Below, in pieces: positions 12,879 to 35,861 of a stretch of 64,000 bases of DNA. The translations under genes and the position numbers were made by a program. This stretch comes from a virus, in the IMG/VR virus record IMGVR_UViG_3300028800_000064, positions 33,241 to 97,240 of that record. The stretch is one strand, 5' to 3'. The notes below the pieces were generated by a model. It was not told the DNA's origin, searched no databases, and worked only from the letters and a program-made list of their open reading frames with translations. How positions within the stretch are numbered: position 1 is the first letter of the stretch; each line of letters starts with the position of its first letter.

Positions 12879-12968
12879 ACCCCCAGTTGCTGAAAACTTG
12901 TTACAGTTTTTGACTAATCTCCCCATAGGTGTAGAGTATTCAGTGTGAGCCTTTTGAGGAGTAGTCAA

Positions 12969-15444: not shown

Positions 15445-15521
15445 GTTTTAGACTTGTCCCTCTATAGTAGGTGGTCACTACGACGCCCTGCAGGGTCCCT
15501 GCAGATTAAGAGGAAAACATC

Positions 15522-16490
15522 ATGGCACAAATTCTTAGTTCTCGCGGGTACGATTCGTCCTACCGTGGATCGAATGCCCCTGGCGCGTTTTATCAGATTT
15601 TGACTTCCGACTTCGGTGAGCCTGCTCCCGGAGCCCCGACGCTGACGGTGCGCACCGCTTCCGGAACCATCACTTCCACCACATCCAACATCAAGTTGAC
15701 TTGGATTACGGCGGAAGGCGTTTCGCTCCCGTCCACCAATACCGGCATTACGGTGAACTCGGCTGACGGCGGCGTGTCTATCGTCATCCCCACTGCTCCG
15801 ACTACCGGAGCCCCGGTCATCGGGTACCAGATTTATTCGCAAGGTTCGACCGGCGCGCCTCTTTTGAATACCGCTGGCATCGTTCCCGCGCCTCAGACGT
15901 TCCAAACCACAAGCGGCCCGGTGATTGGGTTCCCGATCACGTCCACCACTGTGTTTCAGAACAGCTTTGGTACGGGTGCGGGCGTTCCTCTCGTGGACCA
16001 ATCGGGTATTCAGCCTGCGCTGCCTTCGGTTTCGGCAGCTTCTGCTTCCGCGAGCGGCACCGCCGATTACGATTTCATCGTGCCCAACTCTGGGTCTCAG
16101 TGGAAGACGTACAAGTCCGTTGGATACATGAAGCCCTCGGGTGTTGCAGAAACGCCGGGCCTCTCCATGGTCGCGAACTTGGATTGTCTCGCCCCGCTCT
16201 ATCCAGGTGCGACCCCAGGCACCAGCACCTACACGCAAGTGTCGGTGACACCAGGGACCTACATGGTGATGAATGGAAACCTGTTCATCTCCACATCCGC
16301 GACCGCAAACATCGCTGCCACTTTCATCGGCGGCGCAGCGTTCGCAGTCACCAAGGGCACGTCTGTAACAGACGGTTCCGTGACATGGCTGTGTCTCGGT
16401 AAGGCTGTCCTTGTCCGCGCTCACTTTATCAACAACGGCAGCAACGCACAGACACCTGTGCAGCAAGAGACCGACATTTTCCAGTTCTAA
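15522..16490 (+). CDS. Virion structural protein (beta-rich)
   Basis: T/S/G-rich; VTDGSVTW motif shared with the large tail protein; strong RBS. Confidence 0.65.
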   Translation: MAQILSSRGYDSSYRGSNAPGAFYQILTSDFGEPAPGAPTLTVRTASGTITSTTSNIKLTWITAEGVSLPSTNTGITVNSADGGVSIVIPTAPTTGAPVIGYQIYSQGSTGAPLLNTAGIVPAPQTFQTTSGPVIGFPITSTTVFQNSFGTGAGVPLVDQSGIQPALPSVSAASASASGTADYDFIVPNSGSQWKTYKSVGYMKPSGVAETPGLSMVANLDCLAPLYPGATPGTSTYTQVSVTPGTYMVMNGNLFISTSATANIAATFIGGAAFAVTKGTSVTDGSVTWLCLGKAVLVRAHFINNGSNAQTPVQQETDIFQF

Positions 16491-16937: not shown

Positions 16938-16980
16938 ACGCCCTGTTTCTCCTCATAAGAGGGACAGGGCGTTTCTATTT
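16938..16980 (+). terminator. Rho-independent terminator
   Basis: ACGCCCTGT/ACAGGGCGT stem followed by a T-rich tail. Confidence 0.7.
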
Positions 16981-17001: not shown

Positions 17002-18414
17002 ATGGCAAATTTCAATCTTGTTCCGAACGTGAATCAGACGACCACCATCCAAGCGATGGCGGATCAACTGAAAATTCACACGAAGCTCCAGAATTTTTTC
17101 AACGTTGGCGGGATCGACGGCCAGCCCATGCTTCGGCTGTGCGACAATGTCCAGCAGATGCTGTTGACGCGGCGCATGGGTTGGAAGTTCAACCGGGTGA
17201 ATTTGGGAAGCAACAATCCTGCGGTCAACCCGCACTTTTTCGTGAGCCAGCAAGGCTTTCAGGACTTTCATCATGCTGGGGCATCGTGTTTCGCGCTCAT
17301 CAATAGCGTCACGCCAGGCGGTCAACTTCCCGCAGGTGGGGCGGGCGTGGATTTGAACCCCGGCACGTATCAGAATGGCAACGCGCGCGTCAATTATGGT
17401 CCGTTCAATGGCGGCAATTCCTACGGGCCGACTGGGAACTGGCAAACCGCTGGAATCATCTTTGATCCGGTGGCCAACACTTTCACCGTGCAATTTCTCG
17501 ATCCTCACCCCTTTCAATCGGCGAACATTGGGTCGTCGCAGATGCTGATCGCCGGTGTGGTGAATCCCGCGTACAACAGCACGTTCACATACAACCAGCT
17601 CACGCAAACCAGCCAGTGGATCAACAGCTACACGCTGATCGCCATCCCAGACAACTTCCATATCGTTCTGGCAGGCACGCCAGGGCAGTTCGGCTTTGTC
17701 GGAAGCATCTCCGCCAGCGGCAGCATTACAACGATCACGATGCCAAACGCGATGAGCCCCGGCGACATTATGACGTTCACAGGGATCACCACGAACTCCG
17801 CGCTGAACGGCAAGACGGTTACGCTGCTAACGGCTACAGCGTCCTCGATCACTTTCACGACTCCGACAGGCGTCACAATTACAAACGGAGCTGACACAGG
17901 AACAGTGTATGCAGCCCCATCGGGCGCGCCGGGCATCTGGAACATGGGCTGGGTCGAAGCCGCCGCGACCGCGGATATCAACAACCCCAGCTTTCCTCTG
18001 CCCGTCACGCCTATCAATGCTGTGCATCGGATCGCGCCCGAGTACACATCCACGGGCGATGCGTTGAATCTATCTTGTGAGATCGACTACGGTAACGGGG
18101 TGGTGAAATTCCGAACTTCGGAGCCAGTCAGCACGTACCCGTATGCGTTTAACGTGGTGTACCAGGCCAAGTCGCCGAAGTTCACCAGCGGTCAGAATGT
18201 GTTTCAGTGGCCGGATGACCTGTCCTACGTTTTGTTCGAAATGCTGTTGTGGCAGGGCATGCGCTTTGCGTACGGAATCACCTCGACCGAAACACAAGCG
18301 CAAATGCAAGCGGCGATGATGGCAGTTCAAGCGGCCATGGCGTCCGAGGATCGCGAGGATAATATCCAATCTTTGACGCCGAACTTCACGCTGATGGGTG
18401 GCCCGACCGGATAA
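17002..18414 (+). CDS. Virion protein, probable head-tail adaptor with inserted beta domains
   Basis: Helical termini around T/G-rich inserts; position ahead of fibre and nozzle-like genes. Confidence 0.55.
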   Translation: MANFNLVPNVNQTTTIQAMADQLKIHTKLQNFFNVGGIDGQPMLRLCDNVQQMLLTRRMGWKFNRVNLGSNNPAVNPHFFVSQQGFQDFHHAGASCFALINSVTPGGQLPAGGAGVDLNPGTYQNGNARVNYGPFNGGNSYGPTGNWQTAGIIFDPVANTFTVQFLDPHPFQSANIGSSQMLIAGVVNPAYNSTFTYNQLTQTSQWINSYTLIAIPDNFHIVLAGTPGQFGFVGSISASGSITTITMPNAMSPGDIMTFTGITTNSALNGKTVTLLTATASSITFTTPTGVTITNGADTGTVYAAPSGAPGIWNMGWVEAAATADINNPSFPLPVTPINAVHRIAPEYTSTGDALNLSCEIDYGNGVVKFRTSEPVSTYPYAFNVVYQAKSPKFTSGQNVFQWPDDLSYVLFEMLLWQGMRFAYGITSTETQAQMQAAMMAVQAAMASEDREDNIQSLTPNFTLMGGPTG

Positions 18415-18443
18415 AGACTTCGGGCACCTAAGTAGGGATACCC

Positions 18444-21434
18444 ATGATTACGTTGACAAATGGTTTGCCGCAGGGTCCGAACGGTTTAATTGTGCCGAAC
18501 GGCTCGATCAAGTTTCAACTGAACATCGACGCTACTGTGATCGCCGCGCCGGGCGGTTTCGTCGCGGCGGATATTCCTGTGGTGTTTCAGTTCAACGCGG
18601 CTGGGCAGATTCAACCAAATCCGCCCGCAGCCGCTGCGCAAATTTACAGCAACGCGGAGCTGAATCCGCAAAACTCGATTGGTCTGGGCACGTACTATTT
18701 GGTCACGTTCTACGATCAGAACGGCGCGCAGTTGAATATGTCGCCCATGTGGTGGCAGTTTTATGAAGCGGCAGGCTCGACGGTGGATATCAGTCAGATC
18801 ACTCCGGTGTCTACCGTAGGAGGCAACGTGATTTTTTATCCGACACCAAACTTCACGAACAACATTGCGTGGAATGATATTCTTCCGGCCACGGGCAACA
18901 TGGCTTTGAATAATGGGGCGTTCACGACTACGATCACCTCTTCCGGGTTGTTTGACATTGAGGGGCCGTTTCAGGTAGATGGTCCAGCTACGTTCACGGA
19001 GCAGATTACGAATGTAGGAGCTTTGATTATCTCCCCGACCACGATTTCTTTTGCGGCTCCCACGGTAACTCCGGCAGTCTCCGGCAGTTCGGTGTGGTCT
19101 TATCAAGTCGCTGCGTTCCGCTCCAATGTTTTGATTGCTCTCTCCGCTGTGGGTACCACATCAGTCGGAACGGCGACGTTGAGTGGTACGGATTTTAATA
19201 CCGTCACATGGGCGGCAGTTCCAACTGCGGATACCTACGTGGTGCAGATGGTCGCGAGTCCTGCCCAGAATCCAGAAGGCATTTTCACAGGAGCGGGTAT
19301 CGTGGCAGTGCTGAGTGCTCCCACGGTCACCTATAATGATGTCTCCGGGTTACCCCACTACGGTGCTGGTAATAACGCCTGGTTGTATGGGTCTGAGTCG
19401 GGTTTTGTGGGGATCACCACTGGGCTGCACATCGGCCCAGCGTTTACGGCCTTCTCCGGGGCGTTTCCCTTTACTGCCGACTTGGCGGCGGGTTCTCCGC
19501 TTGTTGTGAACTCCATCAGCAGTAATTCCGCGATTGTGGGAAACCTCCAGGTGTCTGGAGCGCAGTCCGGTTTTCCGAACTACCTGGCGACGGGATATCT
19601 TGCGTTAGAGGTCACCGCAGCTAACACGGGGTTATTCACCAGCGCGCTATACGTGGCTTCCGATTATACGGGTTCGACCGGAACCCAAGAATTTTTGTTT
19701 GGTATCATCGCCAGTCCCACGCATTCAGGTTCGGGCGCGCTGACAAACCTCGGCGGCTATTATTGCGCCTGCAACCCATATGGGACCGGCGCACTCGACA
19801 CCATGTTCTGCTTTGAGGCCGACACGCCAGAGCCGCCAGGCGGAACGCTAGCAACAAACATCGGCGTCTGGATCAACGATCAGTCGGGCATCGCCACCAG
19901 CAACTACGGTTTGAAACTCGACGCGCTCACCAATGTCGGAGCCGGAAATTGGGCTATCTACGCCGACAACGGAATAGTAGATTTGGGCGGCAACCTGAGT
20001 ACTCAAAACAGAACAGCCGCCATTAGCACTGTGAATCGGTCTTCTCCCACGTTCACGTTAGGCGGCCACTATTGGACGGGCTCCGTATCGGCGGTGGACT
20101 CCTGGACGCTGCAGGATTTTCTGTACCTCGGAGCCGTGTATACTTTGTCCGCTGCTTCAAACGCAGCCGGGGGTCAGACAACATACACTGGTGTTTTCAT
20201 CCCGACGCTGCCAGTCGGCACAACGCTGACCATTGCGGGATTTTCGAATGCGGGTAACAACGGAAGTTTTACGGTTACGGACAATCGTGGAAATTCGCTG
20301 GTGGTTGGAAACTCGGGCGGGGTGTTGGAAAGTCATGTCGCTACGGCCACGGTGACATCAGGCAGTGGCAGTGCGCTGCTCTTTACGCACGCTGGGTCTT
20401 CTAGTCGGACCCAGATTTTGATCCCGAATGCTTTTAGCAACTACCCAGATTTGGCGTTCGAGGGAGACACTGGATTAGGATTTTCGAATCTGGGGTCTTC
20501 TGAACTGCAGCTTTCGTGCGGCCCATCGGCTGCCTTTTTGTGGACGACGAATACGTTCGAAGTAGGTGTTGGAGATATGTGTTTCGGCCCTGCCGGGGTC
20601 GCCATGGTGTCTCTGCACACGGACCCGACAACGACATACGCTTTGTCGGCGGCGTCAAACGCATCGGCGGGCAACACGACATACACGGGGGTTTTTTCTC
20701 CTGTGGTTCCTGTGGGGGCGAAAGTTAACGTCGGTGGATTTACAAACTTCGGAAACAACGTAACCTATGGTGTCACAGTCTCCTGCAATAGCACAACCTT
20801 AGTTGTGGTCAATCCCAATGGTGTAGCCGAAACCAAAGTGGCCTCGGTCTCGACCAGCAACCCGTGCTTTTTTGTGGGGCTGGGCGGATCGGCGGTTTCC
20901 GGCTTTACGGCGACTCTGGGGGTTCCGCCACAGGGCTACGATCCTCCCGCTACGGGAACATGGACAAGTAGCCAAGCCGGGCGGCTGTGGTTCAACACCG
21001 CCACCTCGCAACTGCGATACTGGGACGGCGTAGAAACCGCATCAGTGCCGGGCACGGTCGCCACATCGCACTTGACCGCGCAAGCCGCTGCGATCTCCGC
21101 GACAACCATCTATGCGGTTCCCGCTGCTTTGGGGGGCCTGTATGAAATTTCGTGGTCGGCGACGGTAACGGTTGTGGATGGCAGCTCATCCACACTCGGT
21201 GGTGCCACGGGCTTTCAGGCGAAGTACACAAACGTGAATGACTCTGTAGTGAAAACTACCAACCCCACAACCGCGACGATTTCAGCCGGAAATACTACGG
21301 CAACATCGATTGGCGGGACTGTTGTGGCCTACTGTAAGGGCGGCACGAATCTGCAGTATCTGTTCGGGTACACGAGCAATACTCCAGGGCAGATGAATTA
21401 CGATTTGAACATCTACGTGCGGTACCTCGGATAA
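18444..21434 (+). CDS. Tail fibre / receptor-binding protein
   Basis: 996 aa, G/T/S/A-rich, internal duplicated module YxLSAASNA..TTYTGVF. Confidence 0.75.
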   Translation: MITLTNGLPQGPNGLIVPNGSIKFQLNIDATVIAAPGGFVAADIPVVFQFNAAGQIQPNPPAAAAQIYSNAELNPQNSIGLGTYYLVTFYDQNGAQLNMSPMWWQFYEAAGSTVDISQITPVSTVGGNVIFYPTPNFTNNIAWNDILPATGNMALNNGAFTTTITSSGLFDIEGPFQVDGPATFTEQITNVGALIISPTTISFAAPTVTPAVSGSSVWSYQVAAFRSNVLIALSAVGTTSVGTATLSGTDFNTVTWAAVPTADTYVVQMVASPAQNPEGIFTGAGIVAVLSAPTVTYNDVSGLPHYGAGNNAWLYGSESGFVGITTGLHIGPAFTAFSGAFPFTADLAAGSPLVVNSISSNSAIVGNLQVSGAQSGFPNYLATGYLALEVTAANTGLFTSALYVASDYTGSTGTQEFLFGIIASPTHSGSGALTNLGGYYCACNPYGTGALDTMFCFEADTPEPPGGTLATNIGVWINDQSGIATSNYGLKLDALTNVGAGNWAIYADNGIVDLGGNLSTQNRTAAISTVNRSSPTFTLGGHYWTGSVSAVDSWTLQDFLYLGAVYTLSAASNAAGGQTTYTGVFIPTLPVGTTLTIAGFSNAGNNGSFTVTDNRGNSLVVGNSGGVLESHVATATVTSGSGSALLFTHAGSSSRTQILIPNAFSNYPDLAFEGDTGLGFSNLGSSELQLSCGPSAAFLWTTNTFEVGVGDMCFGPAGVAMVSLHTDPTTTYALSAASNASAGNTTYTGVFSPVVPVGAKVNVGGFTNFGNNVTYGVTVSCNSTTLVVVNPNGVAETKVASVSTSNPCFFVGLGGSAVSGFTATLGVPPQGYDPPATGTWTSSQAGRLWFNTATSQLRYWDGVETASVPGTVATSHLTAQAAAISATTIYAVPAALGGLYEISWSATVTVVDGSSSTLGGATGFQAKYTNVNDSVVKTTNPTTATISAGNTTATSIGGTVVAYCKGGTNLQYLFGYTSNTPGQMNYDLNIYVRYLG

Positions 21435-21527
21435 GACGAGATGCTGTTGGGCGCAGCGGTAACTGAAACAAGACTTTCCCTTCCATAAGTGAGGGTCTAC
21501 CCTCAATCACATAGTCTTGGGTGTATC

Positions 21528-24500
21528 ATGGCGCGCCGATTAAGCGCATCCGATCCGATCTTGTCCATCGATTTCTGGACATCCGGATTTTATACATATC
21601 GCTCGCAGCTGTTCGCTCCGTTCAAGGGAATCGGAGTCAACGTAGTGTCTTTCCACGACCCGGTGATTGCGGGCAGCAACATGGAAGACACCGACAAGCT
21701 GGAGTGGCAACGCCGTCCCGGCTTCTCTATATTCTGCCCGATCCCTCTCGCTGACGATGAAGTTGTCAATCAGTTCTATTCTTATCGGAATTTGAATGGT
21801 GTCGTGGTTTCCCTGTTCGACTCGACCACGCGCTTGGCCTCTTTCACGGATACGACGCTAACGCCCATTATCACGAAGACCACATCCGAACAGGGTTTCA
21901 TCAGCGCGGTTGGGAATATGTTTTATTTCTCCGACGGAGCTTCTGCCGATCTATACAAGTTCGACGGGGCGAACGTCAGTGTCTGGGGGCTGGCTGCGCC
22001 GACTGTGACGCCTACAGTTTCAGGCATGGGTTTTTGGCAACCGTTTACCAGCAGCAGCAAAATCGGGACGATCCTGGACACGAATGGAAGCATCGAAAGC
22101 TTGTCCAGCGTCTTCAGTCCGAACGGGACGCAGGAGTCTCCGGGTTCCAGCGACATTATTTTCATTCCGGGCGGCGGTGGCAACGGCGGCAGCGCGGCGA
22201 ACTGGGCGGGGGGCGCATTTCCCGGTGCGAAATATACTGAGACGTTCAACGATTGTTTTAGCCACTACCTGTTTTTGAACAGCTTCAATTTCCATATTCC
22301 GGCTGCAGCTACCATCACTGGGATCGAAGTGATTCTGTACAAGTACGCGGACAATGTCGTCAATCCGGCGAGTTTCGTGCAAGATCGGAACGTGTTCTTG
22401 GTGGTTGGCGGAACTCCTGTGGGGTCGGATCGCGCGAAGGTGGGCAACTGGACCGACTCAGGGCTCGTGCCATATGTGTACGGCGGTAAGACCGATCTGT
22501 GGGGGCTGACCCCCAGTCCTGCGGACATCAACGCCAACGGTTTGTCTGGATTCGGCGTGGTCCTGTCGGCGAATCTTTTTACATCGTCCGCGAACGTGGA
22601 TGCGGTCGTGGGGGTTTCCTCGCCTGTTGCGCCGGTCGTCACGATTTATTTCACCGTGCCTTCCGGAACGCCGACGCCTGGATTGTCGGGCGCGACCGAG
22701 CCTGTCTGGCCCACCGCTGTGAATGGCGTCGTGACCGATGGCGGAATTGCGTGGAGCAATTTCGGTCCTATCGCGACTTGGTTTCCATTTACGAATTATC
22801 CCCCGCCGGTTGTGATTTTGGATATCAACGGCAATCTGCAGCTCGGTACTGCCACAACACCCGTGGTGTTGGCGTGGGACGCTGGGACGACCTACTCGAC
22901 CGGGGACCTGGTGAGTTTCGGCGGCTCGTATTGGATTTCTGTCTTCCCCACGGCGAACATGGGGGTCGCGCCGAACTCTGTGACCACCGCGACAACCGGA
23001 GGAACCACTTCAGCTTACTGGGCTCCAGCATCTTCGCCAGTTCAAACAGGTCCAATCATGCCCGTGTGGCAAACCACACTTGGTGCGATCACCGATGATG
23101 GTGACTATGCGTGGGAGAACATTGGCCAGGGGACGGGTTTGGCTTTCGTGGGCTACTCCTATGTCTATGGGTACCGCACAGTCTATGGTCATCTGACTAC
23201 ATCCTCGCAGACGAGCCTGAATACCGGGGCGATCCTGGGGCCGCTGAACGGAAGCATCACCGCATTCTCCATTACCGGCGATGTGGTGACGTTTACGGGG
23301 AACAATAATTTCGTGGTTGGGAACGTGTTTGAAGTGACGGGATTGACGGTTGGGATATATCTGAACAACCAATCGTTCACAGTTCTTTCGGCGGTGCCTT
23401 CGGCAACATTCCCGTTAACGCAGGTTCAGGTGACGACCAACGTTGTGACGGTTACTGCCCTCAACAATCTGATAGCTGGTCAAACAGTGACGTTCAACAA
23501 TGTGGCCTCTGCGAGTTTTCTCAACGGCGTGACCGCGACGGTGTTGGCATCTGGATTGTCGGGCACCCAGTTTGAAGTGGACCTGACGAATCCGGATTAC
23601 GGCCCAACGGCGGATTCAGGAAATGTGGTCATCGTCGGAAGTTGGACTGCGTCCTTTATGCACGCGGACGTGGGTGCAACCACCGACACGGGCGTTGCGC
23701 TGCCGCTGATCGCTACCATCACAGGCATGGGGACGGGCTCGCCGCTCAGCAATTCGGTGGCCAATATCACAGCTGTGAGCGTGGCCGCAAACATTGTCAC
23801 GCTCATCGCCAGTAACAACTTTCAACCAGGCATTTGGGTGACGCTGGCAGGATTGACGAACGCCACATTCTTGAACGGGATTCAGTTTCAAGTGATCTCC
23901 GTAGATAAGCTTGTGGGCACTTTGAACACTCAGTTCCAGGTGTTTCTTGAAAACGCGGATTACGTGCAGACTGCGGATACGGGGACCGCGACCTTCAACG
24001 CGATTGAGATTTACCGTACCAGCGACGGTGGCGGGGTGTATCTGTTTGATGGCGCGGTGACCAATCCCGGCGCGGGCGCAACATGGACCTACAATGATTT
24101 TGTGATCGACGCTGATTTGGATGTGCTGTTGGTGGCCCCCCAGGGACACCAGAATGATCCCCCGCCAGGCGGCGCGGGCTCGACGATCACGCCCGTGGGG
24201 ACGCTGTCGGTTTATTGGCAGGGTCGCCTGTGGCTGGTTGTGGGGAACTTCGTCTATTTCGACGCGGGTCCGGACTGCACCAATGGTATCCCCGAGGAAT
24301 CATGGCCCCCTGGCAACCGTTTCCAGTTCGCAGGCCCTGTGTTCGGTCTGGAGATCACAGCGGACGGCGTTGGTCTCCTTGTTTACCTGGCCGACAGGGT
24401 TGCGGCCATCTTGGGCGGCCCTGAGACAATTTCATTCTATGCGACCAATGCGCTGTCGAATTTCGGCATTTCCAACTTTAACGCGATCTTCCGCGATGGG

Positions 24501-25766
24501 TCGGTCATCGGGCAGTTTACTACACAGCGTCAGTATTTTGAATTGCTGGAGAAAGAGAAGCAAGAGATCGGGTCACACATCGCGGACTATTTGACCCAGA
24601 ATTTCGACGCGGCGTCCACATACGTGACGATGCATCGTGACGGTCTGGACGTGGGTGTCTTCCTGAGCAACGGTGTGGATCAAGTTCTTCGGTTTGGAAG
24701 CAACATCAGTGCGTGGAGTGTTCCAGCCTTCCCCACCTTTGGTGCGGGCGCGCTGCGTTCGATTGAAACCGCAGTGGGTGTGTACAGCTTGATGTTGGCG
24801 ACACCGCGTGGCGGAGTGACGGCCACCGTTGGCCCGGTGAATCCAACCTCCGGCACCAGTGTCGGCGCGGGAACCGCATGGCTGACACCCAACAATATCA
24901 CGTTGGGCAATCCGGCAGATTATGCTACCGCGACCTTTGCAGGCTCAGGCACATCGGCCATTTTGCGCGCGGCGGGCTACCCTGCGGCGCTGAGTGTTCC
25001 CACAACGGCAGTGATCCAGGGTGTAACCGTTTCGATTGTCGGAAAGCAAACGACCGCCTCGAATCTGACTGTGACGATCACGCCGACAAATGCGGTTGCT
25101 GGCGCGGAGACTCACACGTTCAGCTTCGGGACGACGAACACTACGGAAACTTTTGGCAGCTCGACCGATCTATGGGGGATGCCGTGGGGAAGCCCTGTCA
25201 GCGGAGTGATTGGTTTTGACATCACAACCGCCAATACCGGGGGCGGCACGCCCGAGGTTTTTGTGGCCGAAGTCCGCGTTACCGTGACCTATCAAAATCC
25301 AGGGAACTATCTGTACGCGCGCGACACCAACTCCTGGGGTGACGCCGGAGTATACGGCGCGAATAACGGGACGCCGTACGACACTACGAACATCACAGTC
25401 GGCAGCATCACGCTATCTCAACCTGGCGGTCTGCTCATCCCACTGCAGCATGTCGTGGGATACTTCGACGCGGCAGGTACGCTTGACCATGGCGGTCCCT
25501 CGATCCCGAACATCTGGATCATGCCGAACGAGATTTCCGACGACGCGGGCATCGGATTCGTTTACTTGCCCGAGGTATCGCAGGAGCCCCCTACCGGGCA
25601 GAATATGCCGTCCAAGTCTTTGTTGTCCTTGCGGTGGCCGGTGAACATGGTGAACAGCAACACAATGTCTCAGTTTATCCATCACCTGCAGGTGAAGATT
25701 CAGTTTGAACCTGAGAATGCGCCGAACACGATCAAAGTGTTGGCGTTCAAACAAGATCAGTCATAA
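21528..25766 (+). CDS. Large tail protein (nozzle-like) with repeated inserted domains
   Basis: About 1410 aa; IEIYRTSDGG, WQGRLW, EESWP; three beta repeats; AWDAGTTYSTGDLV carbohydrate-binding-like motif. Confidence 0.75.
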   Translation: MARRLSASDPILSIDFWTSGFYTYRSQLFAPFKGIGVNVVSFHDPVIAGSNMEDTDKLEWQRRPGFSIFCPIPLADDEVVNQFYSYRNLNGVVVSLFDSTTRLASFTDTTLTPIITKTTSEQGFISAVGNMFYFSDGASADLYKFDGANVSVWGLAAPTVTPTVSGMGFWQPFTSSSKIGTILDTNGSIESLSSVFSPNGTQESPGSSDIIFIPGGGGNGGSAANWAGGAFPGAKYTETFNDCFSHYLFLNSFNFHIPAAATITGIEVILYKYADNVVNPASFVQDRNVFLVVGGTPVGSDRAKVGNWTDSGLVPYVYGGKTDLWGLTPSPADINANGLSGFGVVLSANLFTSSANVDAVVGVSSPVAPVVTIYFTVPSGTPTPGLSGATEPVWPTAVNGVVTDGGIAWSNFGPIATWFPFTNYPPPVVILDINGNLQLGTATTPVVLAWDAGTTYSTGDLVSFGGSYWISVFPTANMGVAPNSVTTATTGGTTSAYWAPASSPVQTGPIMPVWQTTLGAITDDGDYAWENIGQGTGLAFVGYSYVYGYRTVYGHLTTSSQTSLNTGAILGPLNGSITAFSITGDVVTFTGNNNFVVGNVFEVTGLTVGIYLNNQSFTVLSAVPSATFPLTQVQVTTNVVTVTALNNLIAGQTVTFNNVASASFLNGVTATVLASGLSGTQFEVDLTNPDYGPTADSGNVVIVGSWTASFMHADVGATTDTGVALPLIATITGMGTGSPLSNSVANITAVSVAANIVTLIASNNFQPGIWVTLAGLTNATFLNGIQFQVISVDKLVGTLNTQFQVFLENADYVQTADTGTATFNAIEIYRTSDGGGVYLFDGAVTNPGAGATWTYNDFVIDADLDVLLVAPQGHQNDPPPGGAGSTITPVGTLSVYWQGRLWLVVGNFVYFDAGPDCTNGIPEESWPPGNRFQFAGPVFGLEITADGVGLLVYLADRVAAILGGPETISFYATNALSNFGISNFNAIFRDGSVIGQFTTQRQYFELLEKEKQEIGSHIADYLTQNFDAASTYVTMHRDGLDVGVFLSNGVDQVLRFGSNISAWSVPAFPTFGAGALRSIETAVGVYSLMLATPRGGVTATVGPVNPTSGTSVGAGTAWLTPNNITLGNPADYATATFAGSGTSAILRAAGYPAALSVPTTAVIQGVTVSIVGKQTTASNLTVTITPTNAVAGAETHTFSFGTTNTTETFGSSTDLWGMPWGSPVSGVIGFDITTANTGGGTPEVFVAEVRVTVTYQNPGNYLYARDTNSWGDAGVYGANNGTPYDTTNITVGSITLSQPGGLLIPLQHVVGYFDAAGTLDHGGPSIPNIWIMPNEISDDAGIGFVYLPEVSQEPPTGQNMPSKSLLSLRWPVNMVNSNTMSQFIHHLQVKIQFEPENAPNTIKVLAFKQDQS

Positions 25767-26255: not shown

Positions 26256-26292
26256 AATTAAGACTTTGGTTTCTTAATCAGGGAGACCTTTT

Positions 26293-31260: not shown

Positions 31261-32065
31261 TTTTTTCCTTTGCTGGTAGTTCCACGCCATCAATTCAAAC
31301 ATCGCGCAGAACACCTGGAAGATGCAGTACATGGCGAACAGTGTGCAGGCTATCGCAATCATGGTGTCTCCATTTTCAGTGGGTTGATCTCGCGGCATAT
31401 GGGGCAGCGGCGAGGTGCTTTGCCGAAGCAAATAAACTCCATCTTTGGTTGAGCGGAACACAAAAAGCCGAAAGATTTGTCCTCTATCCTGGTCAGGATG
31501 TGTTCCCACTTGGTTGGTTTTTCGGGCTTCTGTTCTTTGCGAGCGGCAGGGCTGCTTCCCTCATCCACTACAAAGCGGTCTGTCATTAAGCCGTCCTTTT
31601 GCGGGTCAGAATGTTGACTTCGGGGCCGTCCTCTGCTGGGTCTATTTCGGCCACCAACTTCTGGGCGAGATCGGGGATGCCGAAAGCCATCAGAGCGGCG
31701 ATAATCATTGTGCGTTCAGGTTTAGTTACTTCGATTTTTACTTTCATATGGTTCCCTCCATGTGCTGAGAATACCAAAGACCTAGTTTTTTGGCAATGGT
31801 ACCAACGTACCGAAAATTTGGTGACTTTGCGTACCATAAGTGTAAGCAGGAGAATGTCTTGACTCGACCGACCTACTGCCCTCAATGTGCCAGCCGCTAC
31901 GCGGAGATTCATGGGTTGTTGTATGCCATGGGTGAAGCGGTTGGGGTGCCGTGTAAAGATTCGTGGCATCGTGGGGAGACCTATGATCCCAACATTCTCA
32001 ATTTGACGGAAGAGGATCGGCAATTTTTAGCAGATCAGTGCATCAAAATCTAACCCAGGTGATTT

Positions 32066-32359
32066 ATGCACCCGCAACTAGACTTGATCGATCAGTTGAT
32101 TCGTATGTTTGGCTGGCCCGCTCTATTGGGAGCTTTGGTTTGGGTTGTACGCAAGTGGGATAAGGCGACGGATGAGTTTCGTTTGATCCATGCCACTACC
32201 GTTGAGACGCGGCAAATGGTTGCCGACACGCTGACCGGAGTGAACACGATTCAGAATAACCATCTGACCCATTTGGAAGCGGAAGTGAAGGAACAGACAC
32301 CGATCCTTGCGAACATGGACAAAACTTTGGCCGTGATCGCCGCGAAGCTTGAACGCTAA
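32066..32359 (+). CDS. Small membrane protein, holin-like
   Basis: One N-terminal TM helix followed by a coiled coil. Confidence 0.5.
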   Translation: MHPQLDLIDQLIRMFGWPALLGALVWVVRKWDKATDEFRLIHATTVETRQMVADTLTGVNTIQNNHLTHLEAEVKEQTPILANMDKTLAVIAAKLER

Positions 32360-33738
32360 ATCTGGACGCCCCAGAAGGCTCGTTGTTGAAATGGTACTTT
32401 CGGCAGCAGCTTCACGCATGACGAATCCGCTGAGATGGTGAACTGGCGTTCGGTTGGGAACTGCACCACGACCGTCAGGTGCTCGGTTAACACATTCATT
32501 TTGGTCACGGTGCCGCAGTATCCTGCCGCTGGCCCGGTTAGAATTTCCACGAAGTCTCCGCAGTGAACTATAGGCACGTTTGGCACATTGCCGGTCTTCA
32601 TCATTTTTTGGATATCCTCGTTGGGCACGGTTACCGCGCGCACGAATCCCCCTTCATCGTTGCACATCGCAGAGAGTTCCGAGATGCCGCGAACGCGGGT
32701 CAGCGCGCGAACCAGAGAGGGCGACGTGCAGCGGGCAAAGAAATAGCCAAACTGTAGTTCGCCTTCTGCGTTCACTGGCGCGAAGATTTGGGCGGCTTTT
32801 TTGCCGAAGAGTCTTTTGCCCTGGGTTTGAAGGATCGGGGTGAGCTGGTCCATGCGGTGCGCCGACGATATCTCCAGCATGCACCACGGCGTGTCCTTCA
32901 ACGTCTCGACCGGGCCGAAGGAGAGTAGCGGCGAAGTCTCTGCCGGGGGCGCGGCGAAGCGCAAGCTCTTAACGCGCCGGAGCCGAGAGACACAGCTCTT
33001 GCTGAGTCCTGCCTTTGTGAGAGACGCCTGATGGGTCAGGTTGCGCAGATAGGCACCCACGGCTACCACTCGAATATCCTTGTCCGCAAGTAGCGCGCTG
33101 ATGGTTGGGCGGAAGATTCGGCGGATCGCCGGAACGGGAGCCTTGACTTTCTTTGCGATGGCCGCGTAGCTTTGAGTCGAGGCGTAGAGCAAGATCATGT
33201 CGGTCAGGCTGCCGTACGGTGTTGTCTCTTTGCCAGATTTTACCAGCAAAGGCCGGATCACCGACGCATCAGGGTTGAGCCCTAGCAGTATGAAAGCACC
33301 CATGGTCTGTTCGATGATGCGCAGGGCTTGCCACGTTCGCGTTTGGATGAACCCGTGGGCTTTGCCGATGAAGGCTTGTGATTTGTGAAGCACGTAGTAC
33401 TCGACGCAAAGCTCTTGGAATTCGGGGCGCAGGGGCTCCAGCAGCTTGTGGAATTTTTCCGGAAAGTCTTTGGCGAACGCGGCGAAACTCAAGAACCCGC
33501 TATTTTCTGGCAGGGCTTCGGCACTGAGAAGCGCGTCCTCTTTGTCGTCTTCGTTTTTGCGCCGATTGAAATCTTCGAAGCTGGCGGCGTTGGCGACGTG
33601 ATCCATATAGCTGGAAACACCTTGCGTGTTGTCGCCGCGCATGCGCGCTTGGCCGCGCAACCACCGGCCACCGAAGTGTCCATAGCTGCGCCGACCGAGA
33701 CTACAAGGATTGCGCAAACCGCACGATTTGCTTTTCAT
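32356..33738 (-). CDS. Transcription regulator: sigma region-4-like HTH, second HTH, NusG NGN and KOW
   Basis: LRPEFQELCVEYYVLHKSQAFIG..IQTRTWQ; PWCML..IFAP..FGYFF..RGISEL..VPNEDI; GDFVEILTGPAAGYCGTV. Confidence 0.75.
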   Translation of the reverse strand: MKSKSCGLRNPCSLGRRSYGHFGGRWLRGQARMRGDNTQGVSSYMDHVANAASFEDFNRRKNEDDKEDALLSAEALPENSGFLSFAAFAKDFPEKFHKLLEPLRPEFQELCVEYYVLHKSQAFIGKAHGFIQTRTWQALRIIEQTMGAFILLGLNPDASVIRPLLVKSGKETTPYGSLTDMILLYASTQSYAAIAKKVKAPVPAIRRIFRPTISALLADKDIRVVAVGAYLRNLTHQASLTKAGLSKSCVSRLRRVKSLRFAAPPAETSPLLSFGPVETLKDTPWCMLEISSAHRMDQLTPILQTQGKRLFGKKAAQIFAPVNAEGELQFGYFFARCTSPSLVRALTRVRGISELSAMCNDEGGFVRAVTVPNEDIQKMMKTGNVPNVPIVHCGDFVEILTGPAAGYCGTVTKMNVLTEHLTVVVQFPTERQFTISADSSCVKLLPKVPFQQRAFWGVQI

Positions 33739-34043
33739 AGGCCGCCTAGTCCGTCCAGGTATCGTTTTGCATTTCGCCAGTAGGAATCAACTAAAGCATT
33801 GAACAGCTTGCCGTGCCGCAGTTCGGGTTCAGCGACATGGACCATCTCATGCACGAGAGTTTTTCCCCAGCGTTTGTACGCGGAGTTTAGGAAAATCACG
33901 GGTCTGACACAGTTATCGTCTTGAAAGGTGATCCCGAAGCACATAGGGATCGTGTCTCTGGTGACGAGAGACACCGTGGCCTCGGGGAGTCGGTTGTGCC
34001 ACAGTAGGCGATTGAGATGACGGTACGCTGCCGCAGGGGTCAT
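33735..34043 (-). CDS. SprT-like zinc metalloprotease
   Basis: YRHLNRLLW..LP, TLVHEMVH, HGKLF. Confidence 0.85.
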   Translation of the reverse strand: MTPAAAYRHLNRLLWHNRLPEATVSLVTRDTIPMCFGITFQDDNCVRPVIFLNSAYKRWGKTLVHEMVHVAEPELRHGKLFNALVDSYWRNAKRYLDGLGGL

Positions 34044-34088
34044 AATGGGCCAATAGTACCAAAGTACTATCGGTTTGTCAAGGCAGGA

Positions 34089-35301: not shown

Positions 35302-35861
35302 GGATTGGCTGGTGGAGGCGGGGGTAAACCTATAGAGGTCCCTTGCCCTAAACTTTCGGTGGGGTCTAAGCGCCTGCTAAACGCCGAGCCGAAGAGCCTA
35401 GCATATGTAGCACAGAACTAGGCGGGACCCCAAATTACGCTCGTAGAACGCTCATGGCGACCTAACTGGACGGCGGTTCGACTCCGCCCAGGTCCACCAG
35501 AGCGCATTCCTGTTCCGGGTCAACGGGACCAACCCGTAAGACCATTCGGTACGGAACAAACCTGACGAGGGGGAGTGCGCTTTAATGGTGGGCCTGACCC
35601 GGTTTCGACAGGTGGGTTTAGCGGTGGGGCTTTTTCGAGCCGTCCTGACAACGACGTGAAACTAGATCAAACTATAACTGTCAAGCAAACGCTTGCCAAG
35701 GTGATTGAGTTCGTCGTTCCGGTTCGCTCGCGCGAACTGGCAATGGCGGCTTAGTTGCCGGGAGGGGCTGCCCGCAAGGTGGCCCCTTCACATTTTTCGT
35801 GGTTCCCTGGATAATTACGACAGGGATTAAATCGGCGACCGGATGCGCACAGCAGCCAGCC
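35302..35861 (+). ncRNA. ssrA: Circularly permuted (two-piece) tmRNA
   Basis: 3' tRNA-like half (GGCGG-TTCGACT-CCGCC-CAGGTCC-ACCA, ends 35499) precedes the 5' half (GGGCCTG..TTCGAC, starts 35590); G3.U70 pair; tag frame 35680-35754 = VKQTLAKVIEFVVPVRSRELAMAA*. Confidence 0.9.

Follow-up and report, generated by a model that had tools for sequence, protein, structure and literature searches.

We analysed a 64,000-nucleotide window, meaning the whole stretch of DNA considered here, which comprises bases 33241-97240 of a viral record in IMG/VR (97,240 bp, estimated 98% complete). On its minus strand the window encodes a 460-residue protein, P0001, in which a sigma-70 region-4-like helix-turn-helix (HTH) domain and a second helical domain are fused to a NusG-like module composed of NGN and KOW domains. 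The best-supported interpretation of this architecture, drawn from predicted folds, is that a site-specific DNA-binding module would deliver a NusG module to RNA polymerase. More specifically, we assign a probability of roughly 50% to the proposal that the fusion is a specialised NusG paralogue recruited at a DNA site, a phage late-gene factor that would turn the host multisubunit RNA polymerase onto the late genes and keep it processive. The gene and the segments of its product are arranged as follows.

32356-33738, minus strand: fusion open reading frame, 460 aa (P0001), stop included; sigma4-like, helical/HTH, NGN and KOW parts
33607-33738, minus strand: residues 1-44, Arg/Gly-rich N-terminal extension, predicted disordered
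33487-33606, minus strand: residues 45-84, conserved helix and short linear motif LLSAE..PE
33280-33486, minus strand: residues 85-153, sigma-70 region-4-like HTH domain (fold match 91-153)
32977-33279, minus strand: residues 154-254, second helical domain, confidently predicted, fold not identified; contains YAxVAK...APVPAIRKIFRP
32896-32976, minus strand: residues 255-281, linker with short strands
32578-32895, minus strand: residues 282-387, NGN domain
32392-32577, minus strand: residues 388-449, KOW domain, predicted beta-barrel
32359-32391, minus strand: residues 450-460, C-terminal tail with invariant F455-W456-G457

To assign the domains, the full protein was modelled with AlphaFold2 on 40 homologues (mean predicted local distance difference test score, pLDDT, of 82, and above 90 across most of residues 85-460), while the N-terminal module (N-module, residues 45-265) was modelled alone on a deeper alignment that included stand-alone relatives (pLDDT 83). 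In the N-module model, residues 91-153 match the sigma region 4 fold, with a Z score of 9.8 and a root-mean-square deviation (rmsd) of 1.6 Å over 63 aa against SigD4 (3vep_D), and a Z score of 9.7 and an rmsd of 1.1 Å over 57 aa against 8jzt_A. Twenty-three chains reach a Z score of at least 8 for this segment, almost all of them sigma region 4; the top 22 are region-4 domains of sigma factors with one exception, the sigma-4-like protein UPF0122/YlxM. The segment superposes on the -35-binding domain of extracytoplasmic function (ECF) and group-3 sigma factors, and its putative recognition helix, IQTRxWQxLRIIEQ, is nearly invariant across the family. At the other end of the protein, a Foldseek search of the C-terminal part against the PDB returned only NusG, Spt5 and RfaH as top chains (170-190 columns, E 2e-6 to 3e-4, probability 1.0). 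The NGN domain (residues 282-385) aligns to E. coli NusG (6vz7_AB) with a VIA-align Z score of 8.4 and an rmsd of 2.7 Å over 96 aa, and to Spt5 NGN and RfaH with a Z score of 7.7; the KOW domain (residues 390-449) lies within 1.1-2.4 Å of KOW-type barrels and is modelled as strands (E396-444) with no helices, in a single predicted state. A first-pass annotation of this DNA had read a sigma70 region 4 pattern at residues about 98-146 and NGN and KOW domains in the C-terminal 180 aa or so, and had set per-domain structure prediction as the test of both assignments; the domains do model as sigma4 and NGN-KOW.

That annotation had also placed a second HTH behind the sigma4-like domain. The helical domain itself holds up, with the candidate SYAAIAKKVKAPVPAIRR (residues about 189-206) inside it, whereas an HTH identity is plausible but unproven: homologues show weak Pfam HTH matches in this domain (HTH_28, CENP-B_N and HTH_Tnp_ISL3; E 0.02-0.2), and residues 154-254 give weak fold matches to the Spo0A DNA-binding C-domain and to ScpB (Z 4.2 each). 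Comparison of regions 1 and 2 of the N-module by hhalign gave a probability of 0.1, with no internal duplication detectable; the two profiles singly found nothing among PDB sequences, and Foldseek on the N-module returned zero matches at E <= 0.001.

P0001 has no significant model in Pfam, NCBIfam or PHROG; residues 331-428 give sub-threshold matches to UpxY (E 0.036), NusG_myco (E 0.11) and phrog_6386 'transcription antiterminator' (E 0.2), of which the first two fall short of their curated NCBIfam cut-offs (14 bits against 100 and 12 against 150, respectively). PF02357 (NusG) does not match P0001, and the best relative scores 17.3 bits against a threshold of 22.2. A profile match to the NusG KOW has E 0.033, KOW Pfam matches are present in homologues, and the profile of the wider NGN-KOW family matches A. 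aeolicus NusG by sequence (E 0.002). None of Sigma70_r4, Sigma70_r4_2 and Sigma70_r2 matches the fusion protein, and structural searches gave no region 2 fold match.

The fused architecture recurs in metagenomes. A homologue search for it, proposed with the first annotation, was carried out among 5.8 billion proteins and returned at least 147 relatives at E <= 1e-3, nearly all with 90-100% query coverage and 50-67% identity; the source of every one is a metagenome, and many lie on phage contigs of 85-107 kb. In an alignment of 40 of these homologues conservation extends from about residue 45 to the C-terminus (460), with 45 positions invariant, and the first ~44 residues are variable or absent. 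Because the homologues are near full-length and conserved, the fusion is a real, selected architecture and no assembly or frameshift artefact. Some family members retain the N-terminal extension (MKSKSCGxR...LGRRSYG...), while others, such as that at locus L009, lack it; it might be an arginine-rich nucleic-acid-binding tail. Between this extension and the sigma4-like domain, S72 and E74 of the short linear motif are invariant in a low-confidence, probably flexible stretch, and residues 45-84 as a whole are conserved in stand-alone N-modules too. A 241-aa member of the family alignment, P0134, seems to have region 2 of the N-module joined straight to KOW and the FWG tail, without NGN, and may be a deletion variant or a fragment.

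The two halves of the protein also occur apart. A profile search among 1.84 billion representatives gave 332 matches at E <= 1e-3, which form three populations: about 10 clusters of full fusions, many stand-alone N-modules (240-300 aa), and many proteins that begin with NGN-KOW (190-755 aa, with variable C-terminal extensions). Single members among these extensions have HTH_38, GerE or Sigma70_r4_2 matches, and one has an intein-splicing match; because the first three sit C-terminal in NGN-KOW-first proteins, the order in which NGN-KOW is combined with DNA-reading domains varies. A search of 50,697 deposited phage genomes found one record only for each half, the same in both cases: Tunturi_5, a 309-kb Tunturiibacter jumbo phage of Acidobacteriota (PMC11924767). 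Its gp346 is the N-module and its gp25 ('transcription antiterminator') the NGN-KOW protein. The record labels gp346 (PP885688.1 301753-302487) an 'exonuclease', which is probably a misannotation, given 34-36% identity to N-modules over its full length. Stand-alone N-modules are found on 66 viral contigs, many of them 200-460 kb long; in N-module records at least 90% complete the NGN-KOW protein is co-present in six of six, and its detection in fragmentary N-module records tracks completeness. The split genes are not adjacent in Tunturi_5 or in six complete jumbo-phage records, being tens to hundreds of kb apart. The products of the genes beside the N-module gene of Tunturi_5, gp348 and gp349, were considered as NGN-KOW partner and ruled out, as neither is an NGN-KOW protein.

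Complex prediction for the N-module and NGN-KOW pair of a complete jumbo phage, G011, gave ipSAE scores of 0.88, 0.88 and 0.89, with 0.00 for the best control, at least 93% of contacts common between runs, and a partner pLDDT of at least 72. This mark is reached by 58 of 80 solved complexes and by 2 of 110 mismatched pairs, counts that are approximate since our own alignments were used. We know of no similar solved complex, so recall of a known structure is unlikely. In the predicted interface the conserved C-terminal tail of the N-module and its sigma4-like start pack on the first NGN strand, the KOW domain and the stretch after KOW, which is the counterpart of the FWG tail; linker 255-281 of the fusion is homologous to the N-module tail that is predicted to dock on the NGN-KOW partner. 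The split halves are thus predicted to form a heterodimer in jumbo phages, and, judged by homology, the window protein is a fusion of two proteins that jumbo phages encode in separate genes.

This predicted complex bears on the nature of the N-module, which could be a protein-protein adaptor that contacts some other protein, of the phage or of the host, and reads no DNA, the whole being a generic phage NusG-like processivity or coupling factor. If a separate N-module binds the NGN-KOW protein, as predicted, it is in part a protein-binding surface, and the conserved S72/E74 motif in a flexible stretch would also suit an adaptor. The closeness of the sigma region-4 match (rmsd 1.1-1.6 Å), with -35-element-binding domains among the top matches, two of them solved on DNA, argues for DNA reading instead, and we regard a pure adaptor as very improbable.

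We examined the control of the fusion gene through its upstream region, which has the following features.

34053-34081, minus strand: sigma70-type promoter, TTGACA-17 nt-TACTAT, driving a two-gene unit
34056-34067, minus strand: GTAC-N4-GTAC box GTACTTTGGTAC, spanning the spacer and the -10 box of that promoter
33735-34043, minus strand: upstream gene, 102 aa, HExxH motif, co-transcribed with the fusion gene, which is second in the unit

The fusion gene is, on the evidence of this promoter sequence, driven by a host-type sigma70 promoter of the early/middle class. An ATG follows the -10 box of the two-gene unit by only 9 nt, so the transcript is nearly leaderless. The promoter is kept in relatives L004 and L009, and across related loci the gene pair, or a promoter with a GTAC box, recurs. 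The upstream 102-aa protein has sub-threshold matches to SprT-like and YgjP-like metallopeptidases; its stop codon overlaps the fusion start codon (ATGA), indicating translational coupling, and the pairing of the two genes is conserved in most relatives.

Boxes of the form GTAC-TTT[G/C/A]-GTAC number 5-14 copies per genome in the fusion-bearing clade (G001-G005) against 0-3 in controls, lie over the spacer and -10 box in promoters of the sigma70 type, many of them leaderless, and cluster in the early region of G005; no enrichment was found in jumbo phages. Such a box is probably the operator of a phage repressor or an early-promoter element. The N-module might instead read these boxes at early sigma70-type promoters and so be loaded at early or middle units, as an antiterminator, an autoregulator or an early shut-off factor, and leave the late genes to some other factor. 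The box in the gene's own promoter, kept there in relatives, and enrichment confined to the clade with the fused protein speak for such a role. The box is, however, a palindrome with half-sites 8 bp apart, better suited to a symmetric dimer, such as the repressor of this integrase-bearing phage, than to a monomer with two unlike domains, and the early units are short and have good host-type promoters, with less need of a NusG-type factor. We consider this target for the N-module quite unlikely.

A different element precedes the morphogenesis genes. The motif W4-[A/T]GACT[T/A]-N7-YATARG-TRGRG, with the main consensus W4-AGACTT-N7-YATARG-TRGRG, stands before them on the plus strand, and full-consensus copies occur only there. 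Matches to its core number 7 in the window (expected 0.71 ± 0.76), and none of 100 shuffles reaches 7. Each of six related genomes has 5-8 exact copies (about 0.2 expected); in five of these genomes they number 5, 8, 6, 5 and 5, in each genome all on one strand, opposite to the fusion gene. An information profile of 38 sites resolves two half-sites whose centres lie about 13 bp apart, plus flanks, and no -35 element; the -10 box is poor, its last position being mostly G and not T, and YATARG mostly lies 10-18 nt from the start codon. Copies in the window, and a hairpin among them, are listed below.

12911-12936, plus strand: late motif copy, TGACTA-N7-CATAGG...
15450-15475, plus strand: late motif copy, AGACTT-N7-TATAGT..., upstream of a 322-aa gene (15522-16490)
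16938-16972, plus strand: terminator-like hairpin, 14-bp stem and T-rich tail, inside the late block
18415-18440, plus strand: looser late motif copy, AGACTT-N7-CTAAGT, upstream of a 996-aa gene
21471-21496, plus strand: late motif copy, AGACTT-N7-CATAAG, upstream of a 1425-aa gene
26261-26286, plus strand: looser late motif copy, AGACTT-N7-TTAATC
31822-31847, plus strand: late motif copy, TGACTT-N7-CATAAG, upstream of the last plus-strand unit (31859-32359)

The last of these units ends tail-to-tail with the fusion gene. A hairpin in the motif, formed in RNA or the non-template strand, was considered and rejected: the mean folding energy is -3.08 kcal/mol against -2.78 ± 0.28 for chimeras, 29 of 200 of which are as low. 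Because the late motif has no hairpin covariation, it behaves as a linear DNA site, and because its two half-sites lie about 13 bp apart, such an asymmetric, two-part site would suit a monomer whose two DNA-reading domains differ from each other. Just as AGACTT is invariant in the motif, the putative recognition helix is nearly invariant in the protein.

The terminator-like hairpin listed above does exist at 16938, where the first-pass annotation had placed an internal terminator. By contrast, its view of the roughly 19-kb structural block as a single operon does not survive, since at least five promoter-like motif copies are internal to it (12911, 15450, 18415, 21471 and 26261). The gene that follows the hairpin (17002-18414) has no motif of its own, so read-through would matter at this point.

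Taken together, these features suggest the following course of events for a late-gene factor. Host sigma70 holoenzyme would make the fusion protein from its consensus promoter with the GTAC-N4-GTAC box, in the early/middle class. The N-module, through its sigma4-like HTH and second helical domain, would then read W4-AGACTT-N7-YATARG-TRGRG before the morphogenesis genes, and the tethered NGN would take the clamp-helix site on the beta' subunit of polymerase at or just after initiation. The factor would remain as an anti-pausing, antitermination subunit, allowing for example read-through of the hairpin at 16938, and KOW would be left to interact with a partner, for instance the ribosome. Binding of the late motif by the N-module, binding of polymerase by NGN, activation and antitermination are all proposed here from predicted folds and genomic context.

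Several observations weigh against this course of events. Phylogeny confounds the association of the motif with the protein, as both occur in one clade only, and GTAC-TTTS-GTAC, a second clade-specific element, could be the real target of the N-module. The split-module jumbo phages Tunturi_5 and G011 show no similar late motif and have other promoter classes; in Tunturi_5, AGACTT-N7-YATA is not enriched (4 forward and 6 reverse matches against 7 and 6 in controls). A spacing of 10-18 nt from YATARG to most starts sits uneasily with a standard -10 box, unless the late transcripts have almost no leader, and with a motif every 3-5 kb, long-range antitermination would be needed only to a modest degree. 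The sigma4-like start packs on KOW/NGN in the predicted heterodimer, so that the sigma-like surfaces may be used differently. Finally, several large phage proteins without a family match leave room for a cryptic phage RNA polymerase.

We also considered whether the protein could substitute for sigma outright. It would then be a new kind of subunit that confers specificity for late promoters: NGN would replace sigma region 2 on the beta' clamp helices, the sigma4-like and second domains would read a compact bipartite late promoter, and core polymerase would initiate without host sigma, the factor staying on during elongation and antitermination; in jumbo phages the same would be done by two subunits. 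NGN and sigma region 2 share the same beta' site, and host sigma70 alone should read the late motif badly, with its lack of a -35 element and its poor -10 box. Moreover, no phage sigma was found in the genome: the rest of this 98%-complete sequence has no match to sigma r2, r4 or r4_2, to the NusG Pfam model or to the Q21 family (PF06530), the only Sigma70_r2 signal being a 13.8-bit stretch inside a UvrD-like helicase. The phage has an SU10-like portal, and for the late genes of related podophages, phiEco32 among them, host core works with a phage sigma. Weighing the other way, the protein contains no domain like sigma region 2 and nothing that suggests DNA melting, the half-sites of the motif are separated by just about 13 bp, which is not the -35/-10 geometry, and the N-module, packed compactly on NGN-KOW in the prediction, does not look like an extended sigma. 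Such a substitution appears unlikely to us. A search of the genome for a T7-like polymerase (PF00940) gave no match and is uninformative, as the control gave no match either.

The same polymerase contacts would also serve an inhibitor of host transcription. Both domain types dock on core at sites that overlap those of sigma, NGN on the beta' clamp helices and the sigma4-like domain on the beta flap, where they could outcompete host sigmas and shut off host transcription with no sequence-specific role; expression from a host-type promoter would suit a take-over protein of this kind. For a pure inhibitor, however, KOW and the second domain would be superfluous, the near-invariance of the putative recognition helix and of the second helical domain is what DNA reading would lead one to expect, and a conserved orphan late motif exists. 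We therefore hold this role to be highly improbable and return to the late-gene factor, which we compare with known systems below.

The window protein would work most like a specialised NusG paralogue such as RfaH, LoaP or UpxY, combined with Q-type loading at a DNA site. It has the NGN and KOW module in common with RfaH, LoaP, UpxY, TaA and the plasmid-borne ActX/PrfaH (Z 7.7 against RfaH 8pen_P and 6.6 against PrfaH 9ik0_B). The known paralogues, about 160-200 aa long, are separate proteins whose NGN reads non-template ops or RNA leader elements, and the statement in the first annotation that NusG paralogues are normally stand-alone agrees with the matching NusG-like viral proteins in BFVD, all of which are stand-alone and 173-241 aa long. 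Specialised NusG paralogues serve few long, horizontally acquired or specialised operons and are recruited at a nucleic-acid signal near the operon start (PMC7819879). The window protein differs from RfaH-type paralogues in its module of about 240 aa with a sigma4-type reader of double-stranded DNA, which is fused (and, by prediction, non-covalently attached in jumbo phages). Its sequence is also below every family threshold, and it may differ further in its KOW, which the one predicted state shows as a beta-barrel, without the alpha-hairpin of RfaH.

Like the lambdoid Q proteins (Q-lambda, Q21 and Q82), the window protein is a putative late-gene regulator, which by prediction would first bind DNA at a site in the late promoter and afterwards ride on host polymerase. 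Weak PF06530 (Phage_antitermQ) matches fall on the sigma4-like region in 9 of 40 homologues (best E 1.3e-4); in P0021 the match covers residues 99-147 only and scores 12 bits against a cut-off of 26. The fold match to Q21 (6jnx_P) is also weak (Z 5.9, rmsd 2.5 Å over 73 aa) and limited to the HTH region. Q proteins have no NGN or KOW and act by remodelling the RNA exit channel, whereas the polymerase-binding part of the window protein is NusG-like, and PF06530 stays far below threshold. With ECF sigma factors the protein shares the superposition of residues 91-153 on region 4. Unlike the sigma70 family as a whole, it has no region 2 and no Pfam sigma match, and its sigma4-like domain lies N-terminal, not C-terminal, to the polymerase-binding module. 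There is a further parallel in the T4 late system, gp55/gp33(/gp45), in which late promoters have no -35 element and docking and specificity reside on small phage proteins; gp55 and gp33 replace sigma parts in these two functions (PMC7892883).

Phage-encoded NGN-KOW modules are already known as stand-alone NusG-like proteins (BFVD A0A6J5PZH6 'NusG' and A0A6J5MAV8 'RfaH', and Tunturi_5 gp25); these have no fused N-module, unlike the window protein, and gp25 belongs to the same NGN-KOW subfamily as its C-terminal half. In the literature searched we came across no account of a sigma4/HTH-NusG fusion or of its two-subunit counterpart, and a NusG review mentions an extra domain only for T. maritima NusG.

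To our knowledge, no transcription factor other than NusG/Spt5 is conserved in all domains of life, and the characterised specialised NusG paralogues all locate their operons via the non-template strand or nascent RNA. If the late-gene factor proposed here is correct, a NusG module tethered to a sigma-type reader of double-stranded DNA would be a new recruitment principle, one that couples the recognition of promoters directly with the control of elongation. The late-gene switch in a large group of uncultured soil phages that have no recognisable sigma or phage polymerase would be explained as well. The only isolate relatives of this group infect Acidobacteriota, and as the cultured Tunturi_5 has the split version (gp346 and gp25), the system would be experimentally accessible.

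Elsewhere in its genome the phage encodes an SU10-like portal, a GroEL-like chaperonin, RecA, ERF, a UvrD-like helicase, a primase-helicase and an integrase. Among deposited phages the portal has a sole match, in Tunturi_3, a 97.6-kb podophage of Tunturiibacter (23% identity); this relative, together with soil and rhizosphere sources, suggests an Acidobacteriota host. Neither the fusion protein nor the late motif was found in Tunturi_3, which served as a control. A scan of genome contigs found no prophage copies. Of the sequencing runs listed for the late region none is of RNA, and only two, both rhizosphere DNA runs, contain small shares of it.

Other observations concern neighbouring or related sequences. 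Directly upstream of the motif copy at 31822, the window contains a sigma70-like promoter, TTGGCA-16-GAAAAT (31790-31847, plus strand), overlapped by a GGTACCAACGTACC box; the genes that follow it encode a small protein rich in Cys and a membrane protein of 97 aa, and may serve lysis. In the complete 300-kb jumbo phage G011, de novo k-mer analysis found a leaderless promoter class, TTAACC-N18-TAGAAT(A), and a CAGTATTA class before many genes. A gene at genome positions 20024-24763 encodes a 1579-aa protein whose only family match is a GNAT acetyltransferase domain (residues 275-353). On the plus strand of the window, ARAGORN predicts a permuted transfer-messenger RNA at 35407-35845, whose tag peptide ends in ELAMAA.

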